NCBI GenBank assembly: GCA_041744375.1
Contig: JBGTLA010000109.1
Location: 4,553-68,552, forward strand
Reading direction: 5' to 3'
From: Acidimicrobiia bacterium
GTDB lineage: Bacteria > Actinomycetota > Acidimicrobiia > Spongiisociales > ZC4RG35
DNA: 64,000 nucleotides
Below are positions 44,456 through 52,991 of this stretch, piece after piece. Position 1 is the stretch's first letter; the number at the start of each line of letters is the position of its first letter. Position numbers and translations under genes: made by a program. The notes under the pieces were generated by a model. It ran no database searches and was not told the origin of the DNA. It saw nothing but the letters and a program-made list of their open reading frames with translations.

Positions 44456-45490
44456 TCAGCGATCGCGCTCCACCATGTAGGCGATGAGGCCCTTCACGAA
44501 ACGCCGGGCGGGTGAGTCTCCTACGTCGACAAAGGCTTCCTCGAAGGCGACGGCGGCAGATCGGGCGATTCCCTGCGCAAACTCATTCGCAAACTCCACG
44601 CTGCCGTGCTCCTGCATCAGCGCGAACACCTCCTCGATCAAGGCATCGGATCGGAAATGTGGGTCCGTGGCCAAATAGCGCTCGAGTTGGTGGCGATGGA
44701 TCGGGTCGGCGGCGGTGAGGAGGTGGAGCAGCATCAATGTCCGCTTTCCCTCGCGCAGGTCGCCCCGCGCCTCTTTGCCGTAGAGGTCAGGGGATCCAGT
44801 GAGGTTGAGGATGTCGTCGCGTATCTGAAAGGCCGCCCCGAGAAAGAACCCGAAGCGCACCATCGGTGTGGGGTCGACCGCTCCCTGGGTTCCGATGAGT
44901 GCCCCCACCCGCAGTGGAAGCACCGTGGTGTACCAGCAGGTCTTCTTCATGATCATGTCGAGGTAGTCGTCGGGGGTGAGATCGGTGCGCCCATCGCGCT
45001 GCCATCCCAGCTCGATCGCCTGGCCTTCGACGGTCTGGAGGGCCATGAAATCGAACTCGGACCAGACCCGGGCGGCGAGGCGCCGGCCCAGCCTTCGCTG
45101 GTTGCCCTTCAGCGCCCCGAGGGCGAAAACGGCGAGGCCGTCGCCGGCGTTGATGGCCAGCGCCCGGCCGAAGCTGCGATGCAGTGTGGGTTTGCCTCGC
45201 CGCAGTTCGCTGCCGTCTTCTACGTCGTCATGGATTAAGAAGGCGGTGTGGAACAGTTCGAGAGCGGCCGCCGAGCCCAACGCGTCATCCACGGTACCTC
45301 CGAAGGCCTCGCAGGTGGCGAGGCACAAGGCCGGCCGGAGCCCCTTGCCTCCCCGAGCGAGATAGTCGGTGGCGGGAGCCACCAGGTAGCGGGAGGTTTC
45401 TTGGTTGGGGATATAGGAGGCGGCGGCCCGCCGGGCCATCTGGCTGTAGCGCCCCAGCTCGTTCGAGAAACCGGTGCGAGTGGTGGTCAT
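44456..45490 (-). CDS. Polyprenyl diphosphate synthase (trans-IPPS; GGPP/FPP-synthase-like)
   Basis: First aspartate-rich motif LIHDDVED, second FQIRDDILN; KGLRPAL near the N-terminus. Confidence 0.85.
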   Translation of the reverse strand: MTTTRTGFSNELGRYSQMARRAAASYIPNQETSRYLVAPATDYLARGGKGLRPALCLATCEAFGGTVDDALGSAAALELFHTAFLIHDDVEDGSELRRGKPTLHRSFGRALAINAGDGLAVFALGALKGNQRRLGRRLAARVWSEFDFMALQTVEGQAIELGWQRDGRTDLTPDDYLDMIMKKTCWYTTVLPLRVGALIGTQGAVDPTPMVRFGFFLGAAFQIRDDILNLTGSPDLYGKEARGDLREGKRTLMLLHLLTAADPIHRHQLERYLATDPHFRSDALIEEVFALMQEHGSVEFANEFAQGIARSAAVAFEEAFVDVGDSPARRFVKGLIAYMVERDR

Positions 45491-46092
45491 CGCCTGGCCT
45501 CCTCTCGATTCAGGACCTCCAGCTGCAGAGCTACCGGTTCGTCAGGAGCCGTGGAGATCAGAACGAGGCCGTGGTAGTGCCCGGACGGCTGGCCCTCGCC
45601 GACATCTACTCGGAGGCGGACCTCCCGGCTGGTCGACGGGCCGATGCGATCGATCTTCGCCGGTGACACCGACACCGTCGCGGCAGGAATGACGACACCA
45701 CCCAGCGACGCCAGGTCGGTCACTTCGACATGGAGGCCACCCGAAGACTGCGTGGTGAGATTGTGCACCCACACAGAAGTCGCCGAGCTGCCCGCCGGTC
45801 GCACCGCAGGAAAGAGGGCCCGCTCGATCACTGGTGCGCCGGGTTTGCGTTCGGTGCGCGACTCGACCAGCTCCGTGGTGGTGGCGAGAAACCGCAGATA
45901 AGCATCCGTCAGCCGGGCGGCCCGGCCGAGCTCCAAGGGCGGGGGTGGTTCATCTGGCATAGAAGGCAGCACGTCGAGGCGGTCGTTCGATGTCGCCCTG
46001 TCGACCATTCCGGCGTAGCGCTCGACCACGGCTGCTGCCGAGAAGAGGCCGAAGAGCTGCACATCCGCAACGAGGTCCCGGCGGTTGGTCAT
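45487..46092 (-). CDS. Hypothetical protein (201 aa), translationally coupled between the FAD oxidoreductase and the polyprenyl synthase
   Basis: ATGA overlap with the upstream gene and 4-nt overlap with the downstream gene. No recognisable motif. The C-terminal half looks beta-rich. Confidence 0.5.
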   Translation of the reverse strand: MTNRRDLVADVQLFGLFSAAAVVERYAGMVDRATSNDRLDVLPSMPDEPPPPLELGRAARLTDAYLRFLATTTELVESRTERKPGAPVIERALFPAVRPAGSSATSVWVHNLTTQSSGGLHVEVTDLASLGGVVIPAATVSVSPAKIDRIGPSTSREVRLRVDVGEGQPSGHYHGLVLISTAPDEPVALQLEVLNREEARR

Positions 46093-51411: not shown

Positions 51412-51416
51412 GTCGT

Positions 51417-52991
51417 TCACGGCCTCGGAGCCTCGGTCGCTCGGGAGACATAGAGCTGCGCCCCCGAGATCGTCCCACCCAGGGGACTCGCCAGGGAACC
51501 CACATAGAGGCCCGGCGGAACGGACTTGTTCGCCGTACTCAAGCGCACGCCATAGGTGGCGTCGTCGACCGCCTCGAGGCCAACCACCACCTCGAGGGAC
51601 GGGATCGTGGAAGCGGGGTCTTCGATCGAGACGAGGTCGGAACACACCGGTCGGTCGGTGGCGGCTAGCCCAGCCACCGGGATGAGAGCCTCTTCGGTCC
51701 GGGCGGGTACACCTGCGCTCATGGCCGTGGCCGTTCCCCGCCCGGCCTCCCGCCCTCGCCCGGGCGGCATGAAGCTGGCATCGACTCCCTCCCGGGCGAC
51801 CTCGTCGAGCAGCTCCAGGCCGTAGGTCCACGCCCGGGCCCAGTCCTTGGCCAGTTGGGACCAATATCGCGTGCCGTCTTCGACCCAATCCGACCTGGAG
51901 TAGTCGGTGGATGTGGCTCTCGAGGCCACATCCCCGAAGAGAGCGAGATAGGTTTGGGCCGAATCTCCGAAGAAGTCAACCCACGCCCCCAGAGTCTCGC
52001 CTGCCAACGCCGACCATGACCCAGCCTCTCCCGTGGGCGCGTGAGAGGGTGGGCGCGGAGTGGTGGTGGTTCCACCTTCGGCAGCCGCCCGAACCCAGTC
52101 CGTCCAGAAGGGGCACACCAGCCGGGCCACCCTATCCCAGACGTTCTCGGTGAATCCGACGATCTTGAGAGCCTTCACTCTCCGGACGGGCCCGAGGTCG
52201 TTGACAGAGAGGAAGCCGCGGTCGACGTCGATTTCTCCGTCGACACTGAAGTCGAGCTCGTACGTCATGCCGGCTGCCTGCTGGCCCTCTCGCCAGAAGT
52301 CGCAATGGAGCAGTGTCTTGACGCGGGTGACGAGCCTGACCTCTTCGAGGAAGGCACCGTGCCAGTGCTCGTCACCCAGTGAGCCGATTTTCACGGGATC
52401 ACCTCCGCCGACGAGGTCCATCCGTTTGAACAGCATCGGTCCCCGCTCCGGCCAATTGCGCGGGTCTACCCACGCCGCCACGTGGTCGAAAGGAGCGTCG
52501 GTGTCGAATTCGGAGAAGATCCACGTGGCGGCGAGCCCCCCGACCTGCACGGTCTTGGTCGTGCATACCTGCTCCCCCACGAAGGCAGCAACGCTCAGGG
52601 GGAGCTGTCGCCCGGTGGCGGTGGAGCGAAACGGGATCCCCTCCCGGACCGACTCCGCCACATCGGTGATGAGTTGACTGGCGTCGAGGCCGTGCCGATC
52701 TGCCACCGATGCAGCCAGGAGCATGTATTCGGCCTCGTGAGACTTGCGGTGCGGGAACCGGGCGCGCGCCAGGTCGTGGAGGACGGCGACACGCGCCGAG
52801 AGGGGAATCTCGTCGTCAGGAGCCTCGGCCACGGCCCGAAGGGCTGCCGCGGGCGAAATGGGGCGAAATCCCGGAAGAACGCCGGTGTCTATCTCTCCGT
52901 AAGCCCCGGAGAGGACATGAAGCCCGATGAGAGCGTCGTGGCGCCACTCGGCGTCTGGGTCGACGTCGGACTCGGGTGGACGGTCTGTCAT
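51417..52991 (-). CDS. Hypothetical protein (524 aa) with no recognisable domain, first gene of the STAND-containing unit
   Basis: Long uninterrupted ORF, co-directional, ending 6 nt before the cyclase-STAND start. Its composition is not Arg-rich junk. Confidence 0.55.
   Translation of the reverse strand: MTDRPPESDVDPDAEWRHDALIGLHVLSGAYGEIDTGVLPGFRPISPAAALRAVAEAPDDEIPLSARVAVLHDLARARFPHRKSHEAEYMLLAASVADRHGLDASQLITDVAESVREGIPFRSTATGRQLPLSVAAFVGEQVCTTKTVQVGGLAATWIFSEFDTDAPFDHVAAWVDPRNWPERGPMLFKRMDLVGGGDPVKIGSLGDEHWHGAFLEEVRLVTRVKTLLHCDFWREGQQAAGMTYELDFSVDGEIDVDRGFLSVNDLGPVRRVKALKIVGFTENVWDRVARLVCPFWTDWVRAAAEGGTTTTPRPPSHAPTGEAGSWSALAGETLGAWVDFFGDSAQTYLALFGDVASRATSTDYSRSDWVEDGTRYWSQLAKDWARAWTYGLELLDEVAREGVDASFMPPGRGREAGRGTATAMSAGVPARTEEALIPVAGLAATDRPVCSDLVSIEDPASTIPSLEVVVGLEAVDDATYGVRLSTANKSVPPGLYVGSLASPLGGTISGAQLYVSRATEAPRP

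Follow-up and report, generated by a model that had tools for sequence, protein, structure and literature searches.

A cyclase-STAND signalling protein embedded in a conserved actinobacterial gene cassette with a prenyl diphosphate synthase and a phytoene desaturase-like flavoprotein

Why would a signalling ATPase with a nucleotidyl cyclase domain be encoded in the middle of an operon that also encodes a prenyl diphosphate synthase and a large flavoprotein? The question is raised by five open reading frames (ORFs) on the minus strand, within positions 44456-52991, of a 64,000-nt stretch of DNA from an Acidimicrobiia bacterium (assembly GCA_041744375.1, contig JBGTLA010000109.1, positions 4,553 to 68,552 of the forward strand), referred to here as the window. 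Here we report that the five genes are a co-inherited unit, present in well over a hundred actinobacterial genome and metagenome loci from several orders. It is a biosynthetic cassette in which a STAND signalling protein is embedded, and what is unusual about it is the cyclase output of that protein and its coupling in mid-operon.

Anatomy and inheritance of the cassette

The five genes and the region upstream of them, in the order of transcription, are as follows.

52992-53181, minus strand: intergenic region and leader, 190 nt, upstream of the operon
53080-53085, minus strand: TAGACT hexamer, candidate -10 element, 94 nt 5' of the gene 1 start codon
51417-52991, minus strand: gene 1, 524 aa, ATG start, no Pfam match
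48157-51411, minus strand: gene 2, 1084 aa, cyclase-STAND-TPR protein by Pfam, ATG start
46089-48155, minus strand: gene 3, 688 aa, FAD (flavin adenine dinucleotide)-dependent oxidoreductase by Pfam, GTG start
45487-46092, minus strand: gene 4, 201 aa, small protein, ATG start, no Pfam match
44456-45490, minus strand: gene 5, 344 aa, trans-prenyl diphosphate synthase by Pfam, ATG start

ORFs and Pfam matches both agree with the first-pass annotation of this DNA, which had placed five minus-strand genes with these domain calls between 44456 and 52991, and the five called frames have a GC content at third codon positions of 0.76-0.81. Genes 1 and 2 are separated by 5 nt (TGA-ACGAC-ATG), one fewer than the +6 given earlier; the other junctions, given as +1, -4 and -4, are exact, with a single nucleotide between genes 2 and 3 (TGA-C-GTG) and ATGA overlaps of 4 nt at both 3/4 and 4/5. 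Gene 4 combines its overlap with an AAGGAG Shine-Dalgarno sequence. Non-coding DNA of about 190 nt lies 5' of gene 1 and about 200 nt lies 3' of gene 5, and the operon is flanked in the window by ordinary metabolism and transport genes.

The public NCBI annotation makes the flavoprotein of gene 3 shorter by 12 codons (676 aa, starting at Met13), which widens the gap between genes 2 and 3 to 37 nt. That start drops the dinucleotide-binding strand PRVVILGGGMAGL (ILGGGMAGL), conserved in orthologues; across 48120-48155 (minus strand) it removes the initial beta-strand together with part of the GxGxxG FAD-binding motif. Because the NCBI start removes an FAD-binding strand that orthologues conserve, we prefer the GTG start, which lies 1 nt past the preceding stop and restores the N-terminus conserved among flavoprotein orthologues.

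Conservation was followed from two anchors: the 524-aa protein, with 230 homologues and 41 loci in a one-genome-per-species scan, and the flavoprotein, with 80 loci in a metagenome scan. Loci of the first anchor come from Acidimicrobiia metagenome-assembled genomes and from Intrasporangium, Ornithinimicrobium (including O. pekingense DSM 21552), Ornithinibacter, Dermatophilaceae, Propionibacteriaceae, Blastococcus and, distantly, Mycolicibacterium. By family, the neighbourhood spans Acidimicrobiia, Intrasporangiaceae, Dermatophilaceae, Propionibacteriaceae and Geodermatophilaceae (Blastococcus), with a rearranged form in Mycolicibacterium. In tblastn searches, every locus of the first anchor that reaches far enough has the cyclase-STAND gene, the flavoprotein gene and the synthase gene in the same order, and all except one have the 201-aa gene. 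Gene calls in Intrasporangium (530/1087/697/207/344 aa) and Pedococcus (559/1089/675/229/360 aa) repeat the set among unrelated neighbours.

The second anchor gives the same picture. A cyclase-STAND gene is present in 45 of the 47 loci with at least 3.5 kb upstream, a synthase gene in 45 of the 47 with at least 2 kb downstream, and both in all 20 loci with both flanks. Pairwise identities of the five proteins covary across loci (rho 0.89-0.95; 52-80 loci), indicating that they co-diverge. No flanking family occurs in more than 6 of the 41 loci of the first anchor, and no encapsulin, receptor for cyclic nucleoside monophosphates (cNMPs) or terpene cyclase recurs among the flanks. The neighbourhood of the 524-aa and 688-aa proteins, for which the first-pass annotation had suggested such a check, is conserved across actinobacterial groups with unrelated flanks.

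The set is also kept together through rearrangement (loci L043, L044, L118, L119 and those of the L113 type). Type-B loci begin with the cyclase-STAND gene and have a START-domain ORF ahead of the flavoprotein gene (hhalign probability 95% to the 524-aa family); the extra 171-aa ORF of these loci has no similarity to that family. In Mycolicibacterium-type loci the synthase gene and the small gene are divergently transcribed beside the other three. Compact actinobacterial genomes pack genes tightly, and on that prior the five might be unrelated genes that merely adjoin one another here. The conservation data refute this explanation, to which we attach next to no credence: the same set, with tight junctions, stands among unrelated flanks in dozens of loci from several orders, was recovered from two independent anchors, and encodes proteins that co-diverge.

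The first-pass view of one tightly coupled operon is also borne out by sequence, both in junction spacing, which is mostly -4 to +7 nt in orthologous loci, and in a -10-like hexamer found ahead of gene 1 only. In 29 of 38 loci the 140 nt ahead of the 524-aa gene contain the motif TA[GC]ACT, at a distance of 36-98 nt from the gene; among control windows the figure is 0.5%. Among type-A loci it precedes this gene in 28 of 35 and precedes each internal gene in none of 31-38, and across the whole operon of the window the coding strand has it once only, at 53085-53080. Because it fits the TAnnnT pattern of -10 elements in actinobacterial housekeeping promoters, we infer it to be the -10 element of a single operon promoter; a Shine-Dalgarno-like GAGGCGGG stands ahead of the gene 1 ATG. 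The operon scan gave no E. coli-type sigma-70 consensus promoter, terminator-like matches were no more frequent than in shuffled controls, and Rfam had no match over 43000-54500. A single transcription unit of five genes, as predicted from these features, is supported.

Many leaders (window 52992-53079, minus strand; L007, L008, L016, L021, L028, L034 and others) have a local GC-rich hairpin between hexamer and start codon, followed in many loci by GTGACGTGAyAGCrAGGyGGG, Shine-Dalgarno sequence included. This hairpin is seen by eye only, as RNAalifold on a MAFFT alignment of the leaders returned no consensus pairs; the region could act as a leader element or bind a protein. Upstream matches to a CRP/GlxR-type site (TGTGA-N6-TnACA) with at most two mismatches are enriched in one clade. 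They overlap a promoter-like block, GGACA ... TACACT, and have no palindrome, and were rejected as evidence of feedback through cyclic AMP (cAMP) and CRP.

A few individual loci are worth recording. In Mycolicibacterium sp. P9-64 (L043, 4474-16645) the cassette is a six-ORF variant, with synthase and small gene divergent from a START-like gene, an extra 176-aa ORF, the cyclase-STAND gene and the flavoprotein gene; this set directly adjoins type VII secretion genes (EccB and a MycP-kind subtilase). In L041 (5655-13828) only fragments of the five genes match, with wide gaps in between, and this may be a decaying, pseudogenised copy. In the window, the operon is directly preceded, on its own strand, by a class V aminotransferase gene (53182-54414, minus strand). 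The distant cluster L129 is likewise followed by an Aminotran_5 gene; such a gene is not a recurrent neighbour, and its appearance at both is probably a coincidence.

The five proteins

The signalling protein of gene 2 has three recognisable parts.

50671-51204, minus strand: class III nucleotidyl cyclase domain, aa 70-247 (Pfam)
50053-50607, minus strand: AAA_16/STAND NTPase domain, aa 269-453 (Pfam)
about aa 700-1084, minus strand: TPR-like C-terminal sensor region (sub-threshold TPR)

The cyclase domain matches Guanylate_cyc (PF00211) at 56.3 bits against a cutoff of 21.9 over aa 70-247, and the NTPase matches AAA_16 at 69 bits against 32.6; TPR matches in the 1084-aa protein fall below the Pfam threshold. 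Metal-binding D76 and D120 and transition-state N199 and R203, which by motif comparison we take to be the catalytic positions, are invariant in 36 orthologues. Across the same orthologues Walker A (G304-K310, GxxGxGK[ST]) and Walker B (E431-D432, hhhhED) are invariant or nearly so. A cyclic nucleotide is the probable product of this signalling ATPase. At the base-specifying positions stand Q116 (27 Q, 4 K, 3 H among orthologues) and S192 (30 S, 4 T), which do not form the Lys/Asp pair that specifies adenine in canonical adenylyl cyclases. No LuxR/GerE or other helix-turn-helix (HTH) family is found among the Pfam matches at E <= 0.01. Identity in the sensor region is 0.54-0.65, compared with 0.73 in the cyclase domain; conservation of the sensor this close to that of the catalytic domains is in keeping with a constant ligand of endogenous origin.

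Beyond Pfam, aa 66-1046 align to positions 284-1267 of the TIGR03903 profile at 392.8 bits, below the cutoff of 705.75, and the N-terminal kinase part of that family is absent. Elsewhere in the window, 10612-14274 (minus strand) encodes another cyclase-AAA_16-TPR (MalT-like) protein, about 1220 aa long, which has an N-terminal double zinc ribbon and is adjoined by a DUF222 protein at 14382-15728 (minus strand). The genome accordingly carries at least one more cyclase-STAND protein. The two window proteins are 30% identical and align over the cyclase and NOD parts only, whereas orthologues of the cassette protein at similar identity align through the sensor region.

Gene 5 is predicted to encode a short-chain trans-prenyl diphosphate synthase resembling geranylgeranyl diphosphate (GGPP) synthase. 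It matches polyprenyl_synt (PF00348) at 199.3 bits against a cutoff of 27, and its two aspartate-rich motifs are as follows.

aa 88-92 of gene 5: first aspartate-rich motif, DDVED
aa 225-229 of gene 5: second aspartate-rich motif, DDILN

DDVED and DDxLN are invariant in 31 synthase orthologues, and an aromatic residue at -4 (F84) is conserved. The closest match among solved structures is Thermus thermophilus GGPP synthase (1wmw, 179 bits), which aligns over nearly the full length and shares both the DDxxD first motif and the unusual DDxLN form of the second; its aromatic chain-length residue is a W at -5, in contrast to F84 at -4 here. The best NCBIfam equivalog scores of the synthase, 184-192 bits, lie below cutoffs of 450-500. 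The highest is that of the encapsulin cargo polyprenyl transferase NF041169 (191.8 bits against 450), and no encapsulin or cNMP-binding Pfam family is found in the other four cassette proteins.

The flavoprotein of gene 3 has Pfam matches to NAD_binding_8 and Amino_oxidase and no PDB match in a sequence search. Its AlphaFold2 model (predicted local distance difference test, pLDDT, 79.3; predicted TM-score 0.85) has the three-domain flavoenzyme fold of phytoene desaturase (PDS) and is structurally closest to the plant enzyme. A helical insertion of about 120 residues (approximately aa 143-264) has no counterpart in the fold matches. Scores fall well below the family cutoffs (HpnE 52.8 against 283.05; phytoene_desat 23.2 against 569.4). 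With plant PDS and HpnE (COG3349 group) it shares the fold at 16% identity, with about 220 extra residues including the insertion. Unlike those enzymes it has no phytoene or squalene synthase partner in the cassette: SQS_PSY has no Pfam match in the five proteins and is not a recurrent flanking gene.

The wider flavoprotein family is large, with at least 2327 cluster representatives matching its profile at E <= 1e-30. About a quarter of the best 150 relatives are fusions of 1000-1450 aa, either with an acetoacetate-decarboxylase-family domain at one end or the other or as tandem duplications of the flavoprotein. Three distant fused or tandem relatives have enough contig for judgement, a fourth (L128) being left out of the count as its contig is too short.

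L126, 4474-7584: distant flavoprotein relative, fused or tandem
L129, 3602-10068: distant flavoprotein relative, fused or tandem
L127, 4739-7906: distant flavoprotein relative, fused or tandem

Two of the three (L126 and L129) lie directly downstream of a cyclase and AAA_16 gene. Because distant relatives in other architectures again sit behind a cyclase-STAND gene, the recurrent core is the pair of cyclase-STAND and flavoprotein family; synthase, START protein and small protein are an accessory set of the window clade. This qualifies the earlier remark that cyclase-STAND expression looks locked to the synthase and the flavoprotein: the unit is conserved, and the constant partner of the cyclase-STAND is the flavoprotein, not the synthase. 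The L129 locus further encodes a P450, a class V aminotransferase and another, third copy of the flavoprotein, and adjoins VgrG-like genes.

The 524-aa protein of gene 1 had been described as domain-less. Its AlphaFold2 model (pLDDT 81.5) corrects this: an N-terminal domain is followed by a helix-grip START/SRPBCC fold enclosing a ligand cavity, and then by a coiled coil and a beta-sandwich.

aa 12-135, minus strand: N-terminal helical domain
52080-52562, minus strand: START/SRPBCC lipid-binding fold, aa 144-304
aa 327-404, minus strand: coiled-coil hairpin
51432-51695, minus strand: C-terminal beta-sandwich, aa 433-520
about aa 100-195 of gene 4, minus strand: NEW3/NPCBM_assoc-like beta-sandwich, the N-terminal part of that protein being helical

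START/SRPBCC proteins include the StARD sterol carriers, the silkworm carotenoid-binding protein and PYR/PYL. The 524-aa protein belongs to them by fold and not at the level of sequence, and its START domain is embedded in a four-part protein. The presence of this fold strengthens a lipid reading of the cassette. Many polar residues of the domain are invariant, and these may serve specific recognition or catalysis and not passive carriage. In the gene 4 family, 16 of 19 members match NPCBM_assoc (PF10633) at E <= 1, the best at 3.7e-5; the window copy has no match. The idea that the 201-aa protein duplicates the C-terminal half of gene 1 was rejected, the hhalign signal to the C-terminal sandwich being weak (E 3.4e-4, probability 38%).

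Possible workings of the module

Our preferred reading, to which we give somewhat less than an even chance, is that of a self-contained make-modify-bind module for isoprenoids, linked to a ligand-gated cyclase that works by oligomerising. From its family and motifs, the GGPP-synthase-like enzyme would build a short all-trans prenyl diphosphate (C15-C20), and the PDS-like flavoenzyme, to judge by its fold, would desaturate or otherwise oxidise or reduce the isoprenoid chain. The START domain of the 524-aa protein would hold or further transform the hydrophobic product, with the 201-aa NEW3-like protein probably as a partner of the START protein. The cyclase-STAND protein may then bind the lipid, or a lipid-loaded START or flavoprotein partner, through its C-terminal sensor; ATPase-driven oligomerisation would bring class III cyclase domains into catalytic dimers, and the output would be a cyclic nucleotide read by receptors encoded elsewhere. 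The sensing and oligomerisation step is proposed because of the known working of these proteins: STAND NTPases oligomerise on ligand binding, and class III cyclase active sites form at a dimer interface. Both the direction of signalling and the function of the module we infer rather than show. As far as sequence goes, the first-pass suggestion of a regulated or signalling prenyl-lipid pathway is supported.

Several observations weigh against this reading. The cassette contains no head-to-head condensing enzyme (phytoene or squalene synthase), which leaves the PDS-like enzyme without an obvious C30 or C40 substrate, and no cNMP-binding domain, which leaves no local reader of the output. The nucleotide made by the cyclase is uncertain, since the base-specifying pair is the non-canonical Gln/Ser. 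Two metagenome loci of the window clade, L080 and L081 (L081, 3304-8438), encode the flavoprotein, small protein and synthase along with a START-like protein of 395 aa, and have no cyclase-STAND gene within 4.5 kb upstream or 5 kb downstream; their upstream ORFs have no Pfam match. The flavoprotein relative in L127 stands beside a Toluene_X outer-membrane channel, with no cyclase. Co-inheritance, finally, is equally compatible with the cyclase-STAND protein as an upstream regulator.

The main rival takes up this last point. It sees a terpenoid-type biosynthetic cluster with a pathway-specific regulator, in which the cyclase-STAND protein senses an external or metabolic cue unrelated to the product and exerts control either directly on the enzymes or by way of a cNMP and a CRP-type factor acting in trans. 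STAND regulators of the LAL/MalT type have this part in actinobacterial clusters; here a cyclase would take the place of their HTH output. The domain order is indeed that of the cyclase-ATPase-TPR(-LuxR) family; about 980 residues align to TIGR03903, the model linked to a natural-product (TOMM) system; the further paralogue in the genome speaks for a family broadly used for sensing; and the lack of a cyclase within reach in L080 and L081 is what one would expect of a dispensable regulator. Regulators, however, are seldom translationally coupled amid the structural genes that they control, and cyclase-STAND proteins of as little as about 27-30% identity are still paired with the flavoprotein, in three different architectures. 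The search for a CRP-type site upstream was negative, the apparent matches overlapping a promoter-like block, and the cassette holds no cNMP receptor. We consider this explanation rather unlikely.

A defence function is less probable still, and we think it improbable. An anti-phage or conflict system would use the STAND protein to detect infection and a Pycsar-like nucleotide signal, and its effectors would be the lipid enzymes, which might for example alter or damage the membrane. Both STAND NTPases and cNMP cyclases occur widely in defence systems, the distribution of the cassette is patchy with variable flanks, and the distant relative L129 adjoins VgrG-like genes. The PycC models of PADLOC match the cyclase domain (E 3.5e-13), but the matches are partial and cover only the generic cyclase domain; the other four proteins have no PADLOC match. 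A Pycsar system pairs PycC with a cNMP-activated transmembrane or TIR effector, yet no TIR, nuclease, transmembrane pore or cNMP-binding effector domain occurs in the cassette proteins. Ordinary metabolism and transport genes flank the cassette in the window, the viral contigs searched contain no relatives of it, and sensor and enzymes are strongly conserved across classes and are not diversifying.

The make-modify-bind module coupled to a cyclase may be extended by analogy. In a complete make-and-sense module, the isoprenoid ligand would be self-made, the START protein would present it to the dedicated STAND receptor, and oligomerisation would switch on the cyclase; abscisic acid and PYR/PYL in plants offer an analogue for a START protein presenting a ligand in this way. 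We hold this extension to be doubtful. If true, it would be a lipid-to-cyclic-nucleotide pathway without a described bacterial counterpart, possibly one that uses a nucleotide other than cAMP, given the Gln/Ser pair.

Relation to known systems and significance

All parts of the cassette fall in known superfamilies, and none of its proteins passes a curated equivalog cutoff in NCBIfam. The closest relatives of the signalling protein in architecture are the mycobacterial cyclase-ATPase-TPR-LuxR proteins (Rv0386, Rv1358 and Rv2488c type), which have the same order of cyclase, AAA_16/STAND and TPR-like parts. Those proteins carry a C-terminal LuxR/GerE HTH and are solitary, whereas the cassette protein has no HTH and is translationally coupled inside an enzyme operon. 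In Rv0386 the adenine-specifying Lys is presumably replaced by Gln, as at Q116 of the cassette cyclase. The TOMM kinase/cyclase fusion TIGR03903 shares the cyclase-NOD-TPR module and is, by its name, a family of cyclase-STAND proteins tied to a natural-product gene cluster. The cassette protein scores below its cutoff, has no protein kinase domain and has no TOMM genes nearby.

STAND regulators of the LAL/MalT type combine a ligand-sensing TPR-like region with an oligomerising NTPase and are encoded within actinobacterial metabolite clusters. Their output is DNA binding; that of the cassette protein is a nucleotidyl cyclase, encoded in mid-operon with overlapping or nearly overlapping junctions. 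Family 2B encapsulins combine a cNMP-binding shell with a terpene cyclase or polyprenyl transferase cargo (PMC8346489), and are a precedent in Actinobacteria for cyclic-nucleotide signalling linked to isoprenoid enzymes. The cassette has neither an HK97-fold shell gene nor a cNMP-binding domain, and what it links to the enzymes is the generator of the signal, not its receptor. The first-pass annotation recognised no described system that embeds a cyclase-STAND protein in an isoprenoid unit, and full-text literature searches returned no description of the five-gene set.

The cassette provides a second genomic link of cyclic-nucleotide signalling to terpenoid enzymes, the first being the cNMP-binding encapsulins. 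It also brings forward a large, uncharacterised family of PDS-like flavoenzymes repeatedly paired with cyclase-STAND genes. Cultured carriers (Ornithinimicrobium pekingense DSM 21552, Blastococcus sp. CT_GayMR16, Pedococcus cremeus and Intrasporangium mesophilum) make experiments feasible. Cyclase-ATPase-TPR proteins are abundant in Actinomycetota, mycobacteria included, and we know of none with a known ligand or physiological trigger. For these orphan receptors the cassette points to a candidate class of ligand, a modified short isoprenoid, and so offers a testable route to their input.

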